Shown here piece by piece: positions 53,014 to 62,384 of a stretch of DNA of 64,000 nt. A program made the translations under genes and the position numbers. The first letter of the stretch is position 1, and the number at the start of each line of letters is the position of its first letter. The notes under the pieces were generated by a model. The model had not been told where the DNA came from and did no database searches. It worked only from the letters and a program-made list of their open reading frames with translations. This stretch comes from Candidatus Bathyarchaeota archaeon (GTDB lineage Archaea; Thermoproteota; Bathyarchaeia; 40CM-2-53-6), in contig CAVSBL010000002.1 in NCBI GenBank assembly GCA_963726255.1, positions 448,001 through 512,000 of the forward strand, read 5' to 3'.

Positions 53014-53466
53014 TTACCAAATGCCGCATTCCGCACTGGCACTACATGTTTCTCTCAGCTTCCTCAGCAAAGCGCTATCCCTCGACAGGCGCCGAAGAGT
53101 TTTGCTGGTTACGCCGGCGACTTCCAGCTTGTCGAAGGGTAAAAGTTTCAGAATGATGTTCGTGCACATTGTCAGCTCTTCCTGACTAAGCGAAGCCTCC
53201 GCATTGGCTAGCACAGCCGCCATGGTTGCAGTAACGAATGCGTCGCCAATAGTCACATCCTTCAGGCGAGTTCCTTTAGCTGCCTTCGTGAACAGTTTCA
53301 CGAGGTTGTTTCCGATTTCTTCACGCATTTCGTCGGAGAGAATGTACCCTTGTACGGGTATGAAAGTTTCAGGGTCCTTCGTACTCTTTCTCATGATTAT
53401 TCCCCGTTCAAGCATCCAAGATAGGGCAGCTGCAGGTGTGCCCCCTTCGAATATCACGTGCTGCAT
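53014..53466 (-). CDS. Hypothetical protein
   Basis: 150-aa ORF in frame with the upstream ORF. Confidence 0.55.
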   Translation of the reverse strand: MQHVIFEGGTPAAALSWMLERGIIMRKSTKDPETFIPVQGYILSDEMREEIGNNLVKLFTKAAKGTRLKDVTIGDAFVTATMAAVLANAEASLSQEELTMCTNIILKLLPFDKLEVAGVTSKTLRRLSRDSALLRKLRETCSASAECGIW

Positions 53467-53493: not shown

Positions 53494-53988
53494 CTAGGCA
53501 CCCACCATTCCCTGGTGCTCTTGTCGTCGCAAGTCAGTGGCATGTGTGGGAAGATCGAGTAAGAGTGCCCTGGCGACATCGATGGTTTCTTCCTTTGCCT
53601 TGTCGGCCAGTCCGTCGGCGAGTTTCGAAACTTGTCGGAGAGGTGGCGAGATTTCGCACAGAGCGTCAATTTCACCTTCGAACTCTTTGAAGATGAATCC
53701 GTCAGCGCAGATTCCGCTCAACATCTCCCCCATCATTCTCTTCGATCGCTTTGTGACTACGTACTGGGCTGAATCAAGCTCCTCAAGCAGTGTGCAGAGT
53801 CCTTTATCGTCCGCGGAGAATTGCTTGGCTGAACCTTCGGAGACCTGCATTGCCTGCTTAACGAGTTTCGGCCGGTAACCTGGTCGTCCCATAAAGCGTC
53901 TCACATATTTTTCAGCTTCTAGAATCGGGACCCTATCGATGAGGCGCACGCGGGGAAGAGAAAGAAGGGTTTCAATTGGGCGTGGCAT
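53494..53988 (-). CDS. Hypothetical protein
   Basis: 164-aa ORF. Confidence 0.55.
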   Translation of the reverse strand: MPRPIETLLSLPRVRLIDRVPILEAEKYVRRFMGRPGYRPKLVKQAMQVSEGSAKQFSADDKGLCTLLEELDSAQYVVTKRSKRMMGEMLSGICADGFIFKEFEGEIDALCEISPPLRQVSKLADGLADKAKEETIDVARALLLDLPTHATDLRRQEHQGMVGA

Positions 53989-54049: not shown

Positions 54050-56268
54050 CTACGCTTCCATGAAGTCTTCTGCCTTTTGTGGTTCAGGTGGTAGGCCCTT
54101 GCGTTCGCGTATGCCCGTGATGACCTGGTTGATCAACGATTGCGGTACAGGTGCCCAGTGGGCGAACTCCAACCCCCAGAATGCCCGGCCTTGAGAAGCG
54201 CCCCGCATAACCTCTGAGAGGTCAAAGCTCTCAGCTGTGGGCAACTCCCCTACTACATAGACGAGGTGCCCGCGCTGGTCTACTGAAACGATTTTCCCAC
54301 GTTTCTGCGAGATTACACTTGTTGCGGCTCCAAGTAGCTCTGGGGGTACCTTCACCGTGATTCTTTGGACTGGTTCCAGCAGAACTGGGTTTGCGCTGAG
54401 GAATGCGACGAAGAATGCCCTTCTACTCATTGGCATGATCTGCGCTGGGCCTCTGTGGACGGGGTCTTCATGGAGTGAAATGTCCGTAACCTTCACCTTC
54501 ACGCCTCGGATTTGCTCATACGCAAGTGGGCCTTCCTTGAGTCCCCAACGGTAACCTGCAATAACCATTTCCTTAACCTCTTGGACGTACTGGGCTCCTT
54601 TCGTCACTTCCACAAGCATGTTGCTCCCTTCGTCAACGCTCCAAACCCCACGGGCTTCGTCGGGGGGCCATCCTTCCTCGCGAAGTATCTTTGCCATTTC
54701 GTGGCGGTCTTGGTATTCTCCAATCTTGCCCTCTTTGAGCATGCTGATTATCTTGTCAGGTAGAGGCTCGACGGAGAGGTAGATCTTGTTGTGTTTGTTT
54801 GGCGATTTGCCTTCCACAGGGCCGGCGGTGCCTCTGATGCTTTCGCGGTAGATTACGATCGGTTTGGAGGTTACGATTTCCAAACCGGTTTTCGTTATCA
54901 GCGTGTTAGCTATTTCCAAGTGCAGTGTGCCCATTCCGGCTATGAGGTACTCGCCGGTTTCTTCGTTGATCTTCGTCACGAGGTTTGGGTCTTCGAGGCT
55001 AAGCCTGCGGAGTAGCTCCACGAGCTTAGGAAGGTCCCTGCTGTATTTCGGTTCGACTGCCATCGTAACTACGGGTTCCGTAACGTAATGGACGGCTTCG
55101 AAGGGTGCTATGTCCTTTATCGTCGACAGTGTTTCTCCGGCCTTTGCTGCATCGAGCCCTAGGAGGGCGGGGATGTTGCCAGCGCTTATTGTCCCCACGA
55201 TTTCGCGGTAGGGCCCCATGAATATGCATACTTGCTGAACCCTTTGGTCCACCCTCGCGCCAAGTAGGTGGAAGGTTGATCCTTCCGTGATTGTTCCTGA
55301 GAATAATCTTCCACTGGCAACTACTCCTGCCTGCGGGTCAACCACAATGTTCGTAATCGCCATGACCACGGGACCGTTGTCGTCACAATTCATCATAGCT
55401 TTGCCGACTTCGCTGTCTATGTTCCCCTTCCAAATCTTCGGAATCCGATACTTCTGTGCCACATGTGGCGGGGGCAAATGCTCCACGGCCATGTTGAGGA
55501 TGGCATCGTCAAGCGAGGCCCGCTCTCTTAGTTCGCTTACCTTTTCGTTCAGGTAGGCGTCGACGACATCTGAGAATTTGACATTCTTCTCCTTCGCAAT
55601 TTCCGCGTTGAAACCCCATCGGTCCTTGGCCGAACCCATGGCTACAGTGTTGGTTGCGAAGCTTACCTTCCATATCTCACGGTACTCGGGCTCAGCGTAG
55701 AGCTCGATGAGGCGGTTAAACTCGGTGATTATGCGCCCGATTCTCTCCTGAATCTGCTCGGGGGACAGTCTCAATTCCTTGATGAGGCGGTCAATCTTGT
55801 TAATGTAAAGCAAAGGCCGAACACGTTCCTCAAGCGCCTGCCTCGTCACCGTCTCCGTCTGAACCATAATCTCCTCAACAGAATCCACAACTACAACTGC
55901 GCCGTCAATCGCCCTAAGCGAGCGAGTCACTCTTCCTGAGAAGTCAACGTGGCCGGGGGTGTCGATTAGGTTGATGACGTAGGGGGTACCATTCCTCTCA
56001 TGGAGTAGGCTCACGTTCGCGGCCTTGATGGTCATCTGCCGCTTTTGCTCTTCTTCCATGTAGTCTAGGGCTAGTGCTGTCCCAGCCATGCCTGGTGACA
56101 GAAGGCCAGCAGCCGCAAGGAGGGAGTCGCTCATCGTCGTCTTGCCGTGGTCGACGTGGGCGATTATACCCATATCTTCCGGACGCAGCAACTAGGCTAC
56201 GTCATTCGGATTTGGTCCTTGTTAGCTATGATCCTCTGTATTTCCGTCGTAGATTTGTAACGGGGCAT
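54050..56268 (-). CDS. fusA: Elongation factor EF-2; exon 1 56205-56268, exon 2 54050-56175 (729 aa spliced)
   Basis: AHVDHGKT, DTPGH, NKID, diphthamide loop HEDPVHRGPAQ; the N-terminus MPRYKSTTEIQRIIANKDQIR-N joins only after intron removal. Confidence 0.95.
56176..56204 (-). other. 29-nt BHB-type pre-mRNA intron in EF-2
   Basis: A TCCG AA|T GACGTAGC CTAGTT GCTGCGTC CGGA AG|A T; contains an in-frame TAG. Confidence 0.88.
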
Positions 56269-56485
56269 ATTTTCTCAACTCTGCTCCGAAATCGCGATGG
56301 CAACATAACTCGATGTCATTAAAGCATTACTGTCTGGTGCCTCGTCAAGCCTCGGTCGGTTCAACCGAAAATCGGTCGTTGTGAAGCATCATAGGGTGGC
56401 TTGTGCGAATCCACGGCAGGAGAATTTCAGTATAGTTTTCCACAGAGAAAAGATCTGTAACGCATGATGAAACATTCAGCATGGG

Positions 56486-56623
56486 TCAGCAGGGTGCGAA
56501 CCAGGTACAGCCGAAAATTCTGAGCACCCATAGCATGTAACCCGCGAACAGCCCAATCAAGATGCCCGCCATTAGGGCAAAGAAGATGACCGCACCCAAT
56601 TTTCCTTCGGTTACAACGGACAT
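56486..56623 (-). CDS. 45-aa single-TM microprotein
   Basis: MSVVTEGKLGAVIFFALMAGILIGLFAGYMLWVLRIFGCTWFAPC (below the ORF cutoff). Confidence 0.5.
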   Translation of the reverse strand: MSVVTEGKLGAVIFFALMAGILIGLFAGYMLWVLRIFGCTWFAPC

Positions 56624-56734
56624 AGAAGCCACTTTGTCGGCACGGAATAAAACGGTTTGCAAATGGGTCGCCTTGGTGTGTGAACATGGTTAATTTGTCG
56701 CCTGTGAGTTCCAAGGAGTTTAGGTAGTTGGCCT

Positions 56735-57778
56735 TTGGGTTTCAACCTCTCCCCGCTCGTTGTTAAGCGGCAGCTGCGGTTGGATGACCTGAAGGGGCGA
56801 AGCCTCGCCGTTGACGCCAACAATATGCTCTACCAATTCCTCGCGCTAATCCGCATGCGGGACGGAAGGCCATTCACCGACTCGAAGGGCAACGTTACTT
56901 CGCACTTGGTTGGATTACTTCTTCGCACGACGCGTTTGATGGCAGATTATGGGATACGCCCAGTGTTCGTTTTTGATGGGAAGCCACCTGCGATGAAGAT
57001 GCGGACCTTGGAAGCACGGCGCCAGTACAGGGAAAAGGCGCGGAAGGAGTGGGAAACGGCTGTCCAACGCGGCGACTACTCAGCGGCTTGGTCGAAAGCG
57101 GTAAGGATGAACTCGCTGACGCAACCGATGCAAGAGGATGCTAGGAAACTGCTCGGGCTGCTTGGCGTCCCTTACGTTCAAGCCCCGCAAGAGGGTGAGG
57201 CTCAGGCTGCCCACATGGCGTCCAAGGGTGATGTCTGGGCTGCGAATAGCCGGGACTATGACTCTGTACTTTTCGGTGCTCCTCGGCTAGTTCGGTATGT
57301 AACGATATCTGGGCAAGAATTCTTGCCAAGCAAAGGAATCGCCCGCCCGCTCATACCTGAACTAATTGAACTTAACCAACTCCTGACGGCGCTAGGAATA
57401 ACTCGAGAGCAACTGATCGACCTAGCCATCCTAGTAGGGACCGACTTTAACCAAGGAGTTCGGGGAGTCGGACCTAAAACAGCCCTGAAACTCATCAGGG
57501 AACATGGAGGTCTTGAGAAACTGCCGGACCGATTCAAAACTCAGCTTCCTAACAACATTCAAGCGATACGCACAATCTTCCTCCACCCAGATGTAAGGGA
57601 GGATTACGAGATTCAATTCAAAGGCATGGACGAAGAAGGCCTCAGGAAATTCCTCTGCGAAGAACGTGGGTTCTCCCCAGATAGGGTCAATCTCGCAATT
57701 GAACGAATGCGAGCATTCTACGCCAAAGACCGTTCAACCCTCCAAAGCTGGCTAGGGGGCAACCAAGGAGGAGCATGA
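56735..57778 (+). CDS. fen: Flap endonuclease 1
   Basis: AVDANNMLYQFL, EGEAQA, DYDSVLFG, GTDFN, C-terminal PIP box QSWL. Confidence 0.96.
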   Translation: MGFNLSPLVVKRQLRLDDLKGRSLAVDANNMLYQFLALIRMRDGRPFTDSKGNVTSHLVGLLLRTTRLMADYGIRPVFVFDGKPPAMKMRTLEARRQYREKARKEWETAVQRGDYSAAWSKAVRMNSLTQPMQEDARKLLGLLGVPYVQAPQEGEAQAAHMASKGDVWAANSRDYDSVLFGAPRLVRYVTISGQEFLPSKGIARPLIPELIELNQLLTALGITREQLIDLAILVGTDFNQGVRGVGPKTALKLIREHGGLEKLPDRFKTQLPNNIQAIRTIFLHPDVREDYEIQFKGMDEEGLRKFLCEERGFSPDRVNLAIERMRAFYAKDRSTLQSWLGGNQGGA

Positions 57779-59377
57779 TTGCCGCCGGAGACTTCGTTTA
57801 ACCGGTTTACAGAAGTCTGCAAAGCGTTAGAGTCTACTACGAAAAGGACAGAGAAAGTAGCCTACCTAGTGGACTTCCTGAAATCCCTAAGCCGCGAAGA
57901 AATCACACCAGCCGTCTCCTTCCTAGTTGGTCGGCCTTTTCCCGAATCCGATGAGCGGGCGCTCGATATCGGAGGACAGACGCTTTGGAAGATTAATCGC
58001 GGAAGCGGCCAATCTGCCTTAATCTCAAAACCTGTAACAATCCTAGAGGTCTACAGAACCTTCGAGAAGATAGCGACCGCAAGTGGGTCAGGTTCGCGAC
58101 AGAGAAAGGAGACGCTTGTAGACACATTACTCAGCCGGCTTCCCAGAGCCGACGCCGAGTATTTGATGCGGATTATCTTCGGAGAGATGCGCATAGGCGC
58201 CGTAGAGGGCGTCGTCCTAGACGCAATAGCCCAAGCCGCATCCATCAACCCTGAGCGAGTTCGTAGGGCTAACATGCTCATGGGAAACCTCGCCCAAGTT
58301 GCCGAACTGGCACTCACGAAGGGCCAGGAAGCCATCAAGGACGTGGGCGTGACTCTGTTCGTTCCCATCAAGCCTATGCTCGCGGAGATGGCACAAGATC
58401 TTCAGGAGGTTTTCAAAGAACACGGGGGGACAAGCGCCTTCGAATTCAAGTATGACGGTGCACGCATCCAAATTCACCGGAAGGACGGCACACTCAGAAT
58501 TTTCAGCAGAAGGCTAACCGACGTCACATTAAGCCTGCCGGACATAGTCGAGCTCGCAAGGAAACGCGTTCGTAGTGAGGAATTTCTAATCGAGGGCGAA
58601 GTGGTTGCAACCGGCCAGAATCAGAAGCCCCTTCCATTTCAGGATTTGATGAGGCGATTCAGGCGTGTACACGACGTTGACGTGATGCTGAAGGAAATTC
58701 CGCTCAAACTCTTCCTATTCGACGTCATCTATCTCGACGGAAACCTCCTGATTGATACTCCATACGAAAAAAGGTGGGAGACGCTCCGCATCGTAGTCGA
58801 CGAGCAACTACTGGCTACAAGGATCGTTACGAAAGACTTGGTTGAGGCGAAGAAGTTGATGCAAGCCTCAATCGAGGCAGGGCACGAGGGGCTGATGGCG
58901 AAGGACCTCAAGAGCAACTATGCGCCCGGTGTCCGAGGAAAGAAGTGGTTCAAGATCAAGCCCGCGGAAACATTGGACGTGGTCATCGTGGCTGCGGATT
59001 GGGGTTCCGGGAGAAGGCGGGGCTGGTTAAGTAATTATCATCTCGCCGTGCGGGACGAGGCGTCGGGAGAATTTCTAGTGGTCGGTAAGACCTTCAAAGG
59101 CCTCACCGACCAAGAATTCGTTGAAATCACAAAGAGATTGCTAGAGTTGAAGACTAAGGAAACAGATTACACCGTATATGTGAAGCCGTCGATTGTCGTT
59201 GAGGTAGCCTTCAACGAGATTCAACATAGCCCACACTACAAATCCGGGTTTGCCCTTCGCTTTGCGAGAATCGCTCGGTTCAGGGATGATAAACGGGTTG
59301 GGGACGCGGACACACTGCAAAGGCTCTCAAAGCTCTACCAGGACCAGTTCAGGTTCAAAGCTCCCGCAGAGTTCTAA
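57779..59377 (+). CDS. lig: ATP-dependent DNA ligase
   Basis: EFKYDGAR, EGEVV, HEGLMAK, ALRFARI. Confidence 0.96.
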   Translation: MPPETSFNRFTEVCKALESTTKRTEKVAYLVDFLKSLSREEITPAVSFLVGRPFPESDERALDIGGQTLWKINRGSGQSALISKPVTILEVYRTFEKIATASGSGSRQRKETLVDTLLSRLPRADAEYLMRIIFGEMRIGAVEGVVLDAIAQAASINPERVRRANMLMGNLAQVAELALTKGQEAIKDVGVTLFVPIKPMLAEMAQDLQEVFKEHGGTSAFEFKYDGARIQIHRKDGTLRIFSRRLTDVTLSLPDIVELARKRVRSEEFLIEGEVVATGQNQKPLPFQDLMRRFRRVHDVDVMLKEIPLKLFLFDVIYLDGNLLIDTPYEKRWETLRIVVDEQLLATRIVTKDLVEAKKLMQASIEAGHEGLMAKDLKSNYAPGVRGKKWFKIKPAETLDVVIVAADWGSGRRRGWLSNYHLAVRDEASGEFLVVGKTFKGLTDQEFVEITKRLLELKTKETDYTVYVKPSIVVEVAFNEIQHSPHYKSGFALRFARIARFRDDKRVGDADTLQRLSKLYQDQFRFKAPAEF

Positions 59378-59412
59378 GGTGTAGTAGCCGTGACTTCAAG
59401 GTGTAGTACAGA

Positions 59413-60096
59413 TTGAAGGTCGCAGTTCTCTTCAGCGGCGGCAAAGACAGCGCATTCGCACTATGGTGTGTCCAAATGCAGGGCTGGGACGTGGAAAGCC
59501 TACTCACCGTCATTCCAGAATCCCAAGAATCTTGGATGTTTCACTTTCCCGGCCTAACTTGGACCAAGCTGCAGGCCCAAGCCATGAGCCTACCACAACT
59601 AACCGTTAAGACCCGTGGTGAAAAAGAACGGGAATTAACCGATCTTGCCGACGGCCTTGAGCAACTCAAGAAATCATTAGGCATCGACACGGTGGTTTCA
59701 GGCGCGGTCGCAAGCGAATATCAGAGAACTCGAATCGACAACGTGTGCGAGACGCTCGGACTCAAGAGTATTGCCCCCCTCTGGCACAAGAACCAAGAAC
59801 AACTAGTTAGGGAGCAGATAGAATCCGGCTTTCAGATCATGGTAACAGCGTGCAACGCGCTCGGCCTTACCAAGGAGTGGCTGGGTAAGAAACTCGACGC
59901 CTCGGACTTGCCTAGACTGGTCGCCCTCCGAAAAAAGTACGGCCTTAATGTGGCATTCGAAGGGGGCGAAGCTGAAACCTTCGTCCTAGCCGCACCCATG
60001 TTCAAAGTGCCCCTTACCGTTGTTCGGTCCACGCCGCGTTGGCGTGACGATTCGGGGTACTTGGAGATAGAAGAAGTTCAGCTAGGCCCTCGGTAA
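59413..60096 (+). CDS. dph6: Diphthine--ammonia ligase (Dph6 family)
   Basis: FSGGKDS, SWMFH, SEYQ, EGGEAET. Confidence 0.88.
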   Translation: MKVAVLFSGGKDSAFALWCVQMQGWDVESLLTVIPESQESWMFHFPGLTWTKLQAQAMSLPQLTVKTRGEKERELTDLADGLEQLKKSLGIDTVVSGAVASEYQRTRIDNVCETLGLKSIAPLWHKNQEQLVREQIESGFQIMVTACNALGLTKEWLGKKLDASDLPRLVALRKKYGLNVAFEGGEAETFVLAAPMFKVPLTVVRSTPRWRDDSGYLEIEEVQLGPR

Positions 60097-61472: not shown

Positions 61473-62384
61473 TTAAACGAACGAGGCTACCCCAAAGCCG
61501 CATGCCATCAGAGCAATTGTTAACAGAATGAATAGCACGTTTGAGCCTAGCGCTGGGACCAAGTTGGATGTTCGGTTGTAGTTCTTCAAAGTGATTCGGC
61601 TGGCTTTGTATGCTATGGGTAGGCTGAGGAGCGAGACGAGCACTGGGAGCGGCGCTGCGCCGATAGCCACAGCGAGAATAATTGATGCGTAAGTTGCTGC
61701 CTGGCCTGCCACGTAGAGCCAAGCCGAGCCTTTTTTCCCCACTAGTATTACAATATGACGCCTACCGCCAACTCTGTCAACTTCGGCGTCAGGGAACTCG
61801 TTAAGAAATAGGAGTAGAGCGACGAGAATTGTGATTGGAATCAGTATGACGATGCCTGCAGCGTCGATCAAACCGGTCTGCGTAACGTACACTCCCAAAC
61901 CCATCAGCCCGAAACCGGAGCCAGCGACAATTTCGCTTACGGCGGGAACGCAGAAAGAACTGGCGTGTAGAGGACGATTACGATCGCTCCGTAGACGATC
62001 AGGGGGAGAAGGACGTTGAACAAACGTACCAAGAAGTAGACTCCAATCAAGGCAGCACAGATTATCGTAAACAGGCAGACCGTAAGTGCTTCCGAGGGTT
62101 TCATCATGCCCTTGACGAGTGTGTCGACCCCGCCGCTGAAAGGTGTCTTAGGGGTTTTCGCGTCGATTTTGGAGCGATAGTCGAAGTAATTGTTGAAAGC
62201 GTTCACTGAGGCGTGTGTAAGTAAACCTCCCACCATGACAAGGGCAGCGTCGATGGGAAGGAAGACCCGGTGCGAATAGAATGCGGCTGCTAGGCCGGCG
62301 AATACTATAACGACGGTTAACGGCAGGAAATTCGCTCGAGTAATCGAAACTAAGTTGCTCAAAAGCTACTTTCCAGCTCGCCAC
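61473..62384 (-). pseudogene. UbiA/MenA-family prenyltransferase with two single-base frameshifts (near 62362 and 61950; real or assembly error)
   Basis: NAFNNYFDY..D..TPFSGG and NEFPDAEVD..GRRH lie in different frames. Confidence 0.75.

Follow-up and report, generated by a model that had tools for sequence, protein, structure and literature searches.

The EF-2 gene in the 64,000-nt stretch analysed here (referred to as the window; genome G000) is interrupted by a 29-nt insert that is very probably an old and conserved bulge-helix-bulge (BHB) mRNA intron of the cbf5 type, which would have to be spliced out, as we infer from the comparison of sequences. This reading, proposed in a first-pass annotation of the window, found support on several sides: relatives carry inserts at the same site that fall into all three length frames and have covarying stems, the cut restores Asn in every distinct insert, intronless alleles exist, the genome encodes the splicing endonuclease EndA as well as RtcB, and its cbf5 gene has an intron at the position known from the literature. 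In the proposed mechanism, the pre-mRNA would fold into the BHB (Table 1), cuts between bases 2 and 3 of each bulge would free 29 nt and rebuild an Asn codon, and a two-subunit splicing endonuclease and RtcB would cut the RNA and ligate the exons, respectively, as for tRNA and cbf5 introns. EF-2 is encoded by a single gene in G000; since this sole copy carries the intron, the EF-2 supply of the cell would depend on splicing.

Table 1. Features of the EF-2 locus (positions in the window) and EF-2 loci that bear an intein.
Feature	Position	Strand	Remark
BHB intron, 29 nt, phase 1	56204..56176	-	splits Asn codon of IRN[MI]G (IRNMGIIAH here)
EF-2 exon 1, 64 nt (21 codons and first base of Asn codon)	56205..56268	-	begins with ATG 56268
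Central helix, 5' strand, TCCG (exon 1)	56210..56207	-	4-bp helix
Central helix, 3' strand, CGGA (intron)	56181..56178	-	pairs with TCCG
5' bulge AA|T, 3 nt, predicted 5' splice site	56206..56204	-	
3' bulge AG|A, 3 nt, predicted 3' splice site	56177..56175	-	
Intron hairpin, 8-bp stem (56203-56196 with 56189-56182) and 6-nt loop	56203..56182	-	
In-frame TAG, 5' arm of intron stem	56199..56197	-	terminates 23-aa product of unspliced RNA
EF-2 exon 2 (remainder of Asn codon, 707 codons and stop)	56175..54050	-	TIGR00490 match
EF-2 intein-bearing loci			L267 (G001), L264, L041, L050-L052, L066, L087, L028

Geometry of the insert and its surroundings

Translation of the unspliced frame from ATG 56268 gives MPRYKSTTEIQRIIANKDQIR-M-T-stop, i. 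e. 23 residues with the stop as codon 24, and excision of 56204-56176 leaves an open frame of 729 codons for amino acids. Exon 2 matches the aEF-2 profile TIGR00490 with 885 bits (cut-off 738) over profile positions 22-720 of 720. The first-pass annotation had described an EF-2-like N-terminus that runs into an early TAG, a 23-aa peptide from unspliced mRNA, a BHB with a TCCG/CGGA helix, AA|T and AG|A bulges and an 8-bp stem, and a canonical cut that takes out 29 nt to give an Asn codon and a 729-aa EF-2; all of these elements were confirmed. The 12 pairs of the BHB (central helix and intron stem) have pairing probabilities of 0.84-1.0, and those of the intron hairpin alone reach 0.98-1.0. All nearby 29-nt deletions repair the frame, and Asn at IRN results from the canonical BHB cut only, which is one of 13 registers. 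Spliced EF-2 would give the tryptic peptide NMGIIAHVDHGK after cleavage at Arg21. The outer exon-exon helix, compared across 26 intron loci, is weak, with one pair, a mismatch and then one to three pairs, so that the motif appears closer to a relaxed than to a strict BHB. By itself, the fold of the intron exceeds chance only modestly (8 of 200 shuffles score as well; z -1.97) and is weak evidence, and loose BHB-like motifs are abundant in G000 (37,105 and 255,351 in two scans). What speaks against chance is the comparison with relatives.

Exon 1 appears to change as in a translated EF-2 N-terminus: among 99 distinct exon-1 sequences, differences lie chiefly at third codon positions, with means of 3.97, 3.05 and 9.43 per 20 codons at positions 1, 2 and 3, respectively. 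The closest named EF-2 loci are those of Bathyarchaeia. The gene sits apart from any ribosomal-protein cluster (window 54050-60096) and is divergent from genes for FEN1, DNA ligase and a member of the diphthamide synthase family, with FEN1 lying upstream in several relatives, too. The two ORFs directly after EF-2 (window 53494-53988 and 53014-53466, minus strand) are without Pfam match, and the 164-aa one of them recurs behind the EF-2 genes of loci L031 and L056. Elsewhere in the window, a UbiA-family prenyltransferase gene is found in two pieces (61473-62362, minus strand). Its break near 61937 was scored as a 20-nt intron candidate, which was rejected as it fits a one-base frameshift better.

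Inserts at the same site in relatives

Loci of relatives were found with the G000 EF-2 as query and include kin that are non-independent. In a first set, 41 genomes were searched, 32 matched and 30 loci were returned, 27 of which have an insert at the same site, while one is intronless, one carries an insert elsewhere and one is without its 5' end. Addition of named genome loci, at least 120 metagenome loci (retrieved by a gap motif) and phylum loci brought the total to 249 parsed loci with 171 intron calls, 60 intronless genes and 18 cases without the motif. Two of the calls (L122 and L198), although parsed as EF-2 introns, are TypA-like genes and were dropped, which leaves 169. The counts exclude the 18 motif-less loci as well as L253-L272, and they are based on 104 distinct inserts because many loci repeat one genome. 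An insert in G031 that seemed to be in frame and stop-less is really a 34-nt intron with TAA. A pattern match across the phylum (51 of 401 genomes) does not amount to an intron tally, many of the matches being intronless genes hit by chance.

The same-site inserts (169 loci, 104 distinct) measure 25-44 nt, and their lengths modulo 3 are 0, 1 and 2 in 27, 40 and 37 of the 104, respectively. The central helix is paired in every one of them, as TCCG/CGGA (82), TCCG/CGGG (10), TTCG/CGAA (10) or TTCG/CGAG (2), with a double change from C-G to U-A in ten introns and a change from C-G to U-A together with a U-G pair in two. In the 5' bulge, the triplets AAA (82), AAT (11) and TAA (11) occur; the 3' bulge takes eight different triplets, whose third base, belonging to the exon, is invariably A. 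The first four pairs of the intron stem adjoining the 5' bulge are kept in 104, 100, 103 and 93 of the 104 introns. Splicing would yield an Asn codon in all 104, and reading through the end of the insert would give Asp in 33, Tyr in 32, Asn in 20 and His in 19, the base preceding the exon-2 boundary varying freely. Among 45 hand-picked sequences, 97.8% of cells are paired and 50 double changes were counted, numbers that are inflated by kin; none of 500 shuffles scored as high, and structures slid along the sequence are 23-50% paired. Intronless alleles, for example L023 from the same order and L055, read IRN uninterrupted. The alignment of relatives that had been suggested earlier as a check hence contains both intronless alleles and covarying stems.

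The same-site intron extends from Bathyarchaeia to Nitrososphaeria and so occurs in several lineages of Thermoproteota. The class of G568 (a single-contig genome of family f78) falls together with named Nitrososphaerota loci, and 136 of its 141 genomes matched in a tally that includes one unpublished genome with intact EF-2 (G680); the intron occurs in families f78 (3/3) and f85 (9/9 matched), and EF-2 is intact in f35 (71 genomes). It is also mostly intact in the other orders of the window's class among the matches listed (150 of 269). In a quick, midpoint-rooted EF-2 tree of 99 rows, with sampling biased to kin, all 62 rows with the intron at this site fall within a single branch (82 rows, support 99), in which seven intronless rows are nested, and well-supported branches force at least six changes between presence and absence. 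Sequence types of the intron track lineages, as exemplified by the TTCG/CGAA helix in Nitrososphaeria. The simplest reading of this pattern is one old gain with repeated losses: the intron would have been gained once in an EF-2 clade that comprises Nitrososphaeria, one order of Bathyarchaeia and several more lineages of 'Bathyarchaeota', and would have been lost repeatedly thereafter. Two loci without the common intron, from one genome each, have a BHB insert with an in-frame stop at another place, i. e. L030 from the same order (42 nt at the His/Val codon boundary of AHVDHGK, approximately L030:250-291) and L059 from Nitrososphaeria (29 nt in the Lys codon of HGKT, approximately L059:1470-1498). 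This makes three separate BHB sites in EF-2 within about 40 nt.

Three contigs labelled as bacterial, L031 (Acidiferrales), L046 (Methylomirabilota) and L065 (Acidoferrum), bear an archaeal, intron-containing EF-2 and are probably mislabelled or misbinned. In L265 (G665), the N-terminal EF-2 match runs over 76 codons per 70 query residues, with an in-frame extra of six codons without a stop that lies away from the intron site.

The early stop and competing explanations

Each of the 104 introns has an in-frame stop (TAG in 88, TAA in 9, TGA in 7), which in 100 of them stands at one fixed codon, the third after Arg; the other two frames hold a stop in 24 and 29 introns. Since all three stop codons are used, 101 introns retain the U of the stop but only 70 pair it, and 77 introns would shift the frame regardless of the stop, these counts point to selection on the early stop for its place, beyond pairing. 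A stop in the 5' arm may be kept by selection so that ribosomes on unspliced RNA leave before making a protein whose GTPase motif is disrupted.

The conserved early stop is likewise compatible with a switch that couples EF-2 supply to tRNA processing. Conceivably, and we offer this tentatively, these archaea splice mRNA as a matter of routine and have kept the intron as a control point. Ribosomes on the 21-codon exon 1, terminating on the 5' arm, would then compete with folding of the BHB. Slow elongation or a high splicing capacity would raise the amount of spliced EF-2 message, so that the tRNA-splicing machinery would feed back on translation. Selection for an intron at this place would have left its marks in the fixed position of the early stop and in the two lineages that have, instead of the common intron, another BHB intron about 40 nt away at most. 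Such a switch would be dispensable, because intronless close relatives exist.

Rather unlikely, in our estimate, is that the intron is spliced but a recently mobile passenger, moved by a homing endonuclease from a free-standing neighbouring gene or from an EF-2 intein, with the three EF-2 sites representing a homing hot spot. Some alleles do have a LAGLIDADG intein in the P-loop of EF-2 at HGK|T (HGK|C...HN|T), which follows the 3' splice site at a distance of about 35 nt; seven loci combine intron and intein, one has the intein only, 162 the intron only and 58 neither. The patchy presence with its at least six well-supported changes would also suit mobility. Yet, the three matches to the LAGLIDADG family, the one searched, lie more than 360 kb from EF-2 in G000, the flanking genes of 19 loci vary with none nuclease-like by eye, and the intron sequence types go with lineages.

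RNA and protein records bear on the remaining alternatives. The first-pass annotation had named reads across the splice junction as a check. Of eight RNA runs listed, each with less than half of the query words, four were compared, as assembled contigs. A joint that skips the EF-2 intron was absent from the four runs (contigs of low depth), and three of them keep the intron; this check returned nothing in favour of splicing. Runs X2 and X3, from one study, contain one 107-nt contig each that bridges a 28-nt form of the intron unspliced (depths of 3.6 and 3.5), and X5 contains four contigs with the EF-2 intron. Run X1 is uninformative because it is without cover over 56184-56500; its loose end at 56170 differs in the Arg codon and stems from another organism. 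The intron-retaining contigs may represent pre-mRNA or DNA in the libraries, and they suggest that the unspliced EF-2 precursor is not rare. Since contigs drop the rarer form and libraries can hold DNA, these data neither show nor exclude splicing. The spliced-junction motif of this genus gave 0 matches in metagenome contigs, none of the intronless copies among the at least 120 metagenome loci has the N-terminus of this genus (judged by eye), and no protein with the full N-terminus of this genus joined at IRNMG occurs among the 240 matches listed (of 219 and 2,282). One protein record, P0001, known from the protein alone, reads through the insert without a stop.

Retention of the insert in the RNA contigs that cover the site would be expected if there were no splicing at all and EF-2 without its first 22 residues were made from an internal start (ATG 56173), perhaps by re-initiation after the 23-codon frame, the hairpin serving translational control. 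An ATG indeed follows the Asn codon in 44 of the 104 introns, and gene callers place the EF-2 start at this ATG in 50 of 120 listed near-length proteins. We nevertheless regard this explanation as very improbable. It fails in 56 of the 104 introns because these offer no ATG, GTG or TTG in frame with exon 2, either at that codon or upstream of it. Moreover, exon 1 evolves as an EF-2 N-terminus, Met stands at that place in intronless relatives, too (P0166-P0168), and the conserved BHB, whose cut restores Asn throughout, would be left unexplained.

Ribosomal bypass, in which ribosomes hop over a stretch of message from a take-off to a landing codon, is known from phage T4 gene 60. In an analogous scenario, ribosomes stalled at the hairpin stop would jump to exon 2 while the mRNA stays uncut. 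A hairpin with a stop codon that closely follows a conserved codon looks like a take-off site, and the intron-retaining RNA contigs would fit, but a landing codon in frame with exon 2 that is identical to the codon preceding the stop exists in only 9 of 104 introns, and a synonymous one in 26. Furthermore, a hop is unable to rebuild the Asn codon, of which one base lies before the insert and two lie after it, and the residue placed at the invariant site would vary between Asp, Tyr, Asn and His. We regard bypass as extremely improbable. The chance of an assembly error or a dead gene, finally, is negligible: the window does hold one apparent frameshift elsewhere (UbiA), but the 104 different versions with covarying stems in independent assemblies refute an artefact, a possibility that had been raised at the outset, and the gene is the only EF-2 in the genome and has an intact exon 2.

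Further introns in the genome and known systems

A blind scan of G000 for BHB motifs that break a coding frame and repair it once removed gave 227 candidates from the 37,105 loose motifs and 606 from the 255,351. Ranked by energy per base among the 606, glyA came first, EF-2 second and polB fifth, and cbf5 was also returned; the gene families were confirmed by profile. The glyA intron (C2:1808106, plus strand, L273) comprises 30 nt after NRYAE and opens with a stop codon. In relatives, 16 of 25 glyA loci have an intron of 25-34 nt, in all cases with an in-frame stop, six are intronless and three gave no clear call. In polB, coding for a family B DNA polymerase, 24 nt are inserted at VCS|FGY (C2:586258, minus strand, L274); 11 of 19 relatives' loci carry an intron of 20-26 nt, all with an in-frame stop, and seven rows from six genomes are intronless. 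One of these 19 loci (L315) has an intein-like end at the VCS|FGY motif. The 19-nt cbf5 intron (C2:296552, plus strand, L319) lies between bases 1 and 2 of the Asp codon in GTLDPK. This is the boundary known from the crenarchaeal literature, which makes the intron a positive control for the scan. It is present in 29 of 30 relatives' loci, with a stop inside in 25 of the 29 at varying codons, which apparently extends the site from crenarchaea to Bathyarchaeia. It shares its first seven bases with the most frequent start of the EF-2 introns, which may be a coincidence. Taken together, G000 would hold at least four BHB mRNA introns, in EF-2, cbf5, glyA and polB. Copies of the EF-2 intron elsewhere in the genome were not found within 8 mismatches.

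With respect to the machinery, G000 encodes RtcB and two splicing-endonuclease genes of the PF01974 family, one of them above the TIGR00324 cut-off and the other with a weak beta-subunit match. Judged by these profile matches and by catalytic residues, one is presumably the catalytic type and the other the second subunit, and together they would make up an (alpha-beta)2 enzyme. ARAGORN calls introns in 27 of 30 tRNAs, many at non-canonical positions, although some calls are doubtful. According to the accessible text of PMC5829648, non-canonical introns are cut only by (alpha-beta)2 and epsilon2 enzymes.

Several consequences would follow. If the intron is spliced, protein synthesis in these archaea of sediment, peat and hot springs depends directly on splicing of the tRNA type, and their gene expression includes the splicing of mRNA as a normal step. 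Whether such introns regulate or merely hitch-hike can then be tested on a gene that is essential and for which nature provides intronless controls. Public annotations would start EF-2 at the wrong codon in the 50 listed proteins mentioned above, with effects on its use as a standard marker in phylogenetics; glyA and polB, when split, may be taken for pseudogenes.

Earlier work on the cbf5 pre-mRNA intron is said to include Watanabe 2002 and Yoshinari 2006. The accessible part of Yokobori et al. 2009 (PMC2738675) describes this intron for Desulfurococcales and Sulfolobales, where it measures 16-44 nt and lies between codon bases 1 and 2, and states that introns in other protein genes had previously been predicted. 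Schwarz et al. 2020 (PMC7714728), as far as the text is accessible, report a BHB intron in the 5' UTR of Haloferax volcanii HVO_1309, suggest that its removal matters for expression and name cbf5 as the only other BHB mRNA intron reported. In the accessible text of PMC6143161, neither an intron nor an intein in EF-2 is mentioned. A BHB intron in EF-2, glyA or polB was not reported anywhere in the full-text literature searched, most subscription journals lying outside it, and the earlier impression that none is known for EF-2 stands within that scope. As far as these accessible texts go, cbf5 is the only published BHB intron in an archaeal coding region, and G000 alone appears to have four.

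Like the intron of EF-2, for which this is deduced, that of HVO_1309 is an mRNA substrate of the tRNA splicing endonuclease; in the accessible account it lies outside the reading frame, whereas the EF-2 intron breaks the frame. Archaeal non-canonical tRNA introns share the motif and presumably the enzymes with EF-2, whose substrate in contrast is a protein-coding message. The closest counterpart is the crenarchaeal cbf5 intron as described in the accessible part of PMC2738675. Both are short (16-44 versus 25-44 nt), contain no ORF, have BHB-like ends and a boundary after the first base of a conserved codon, show lineage-specific losses and have been overlooked by annotation. Splicing has been reported for cbf5, according to the same part of that source, and the EF-2 intron is known here from its sequence. 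Unlike cbf5, the host in the present case is an essential translation GTPase, the range covers Bathyarchaeia and Nitrososphaeria, three sites fall within about 40 nt, and the stop occupies one fixed codon in 100 of 104 introns, as opposed to the varying codons of the 25 stops among the 29 cbf5 introns of relatives.
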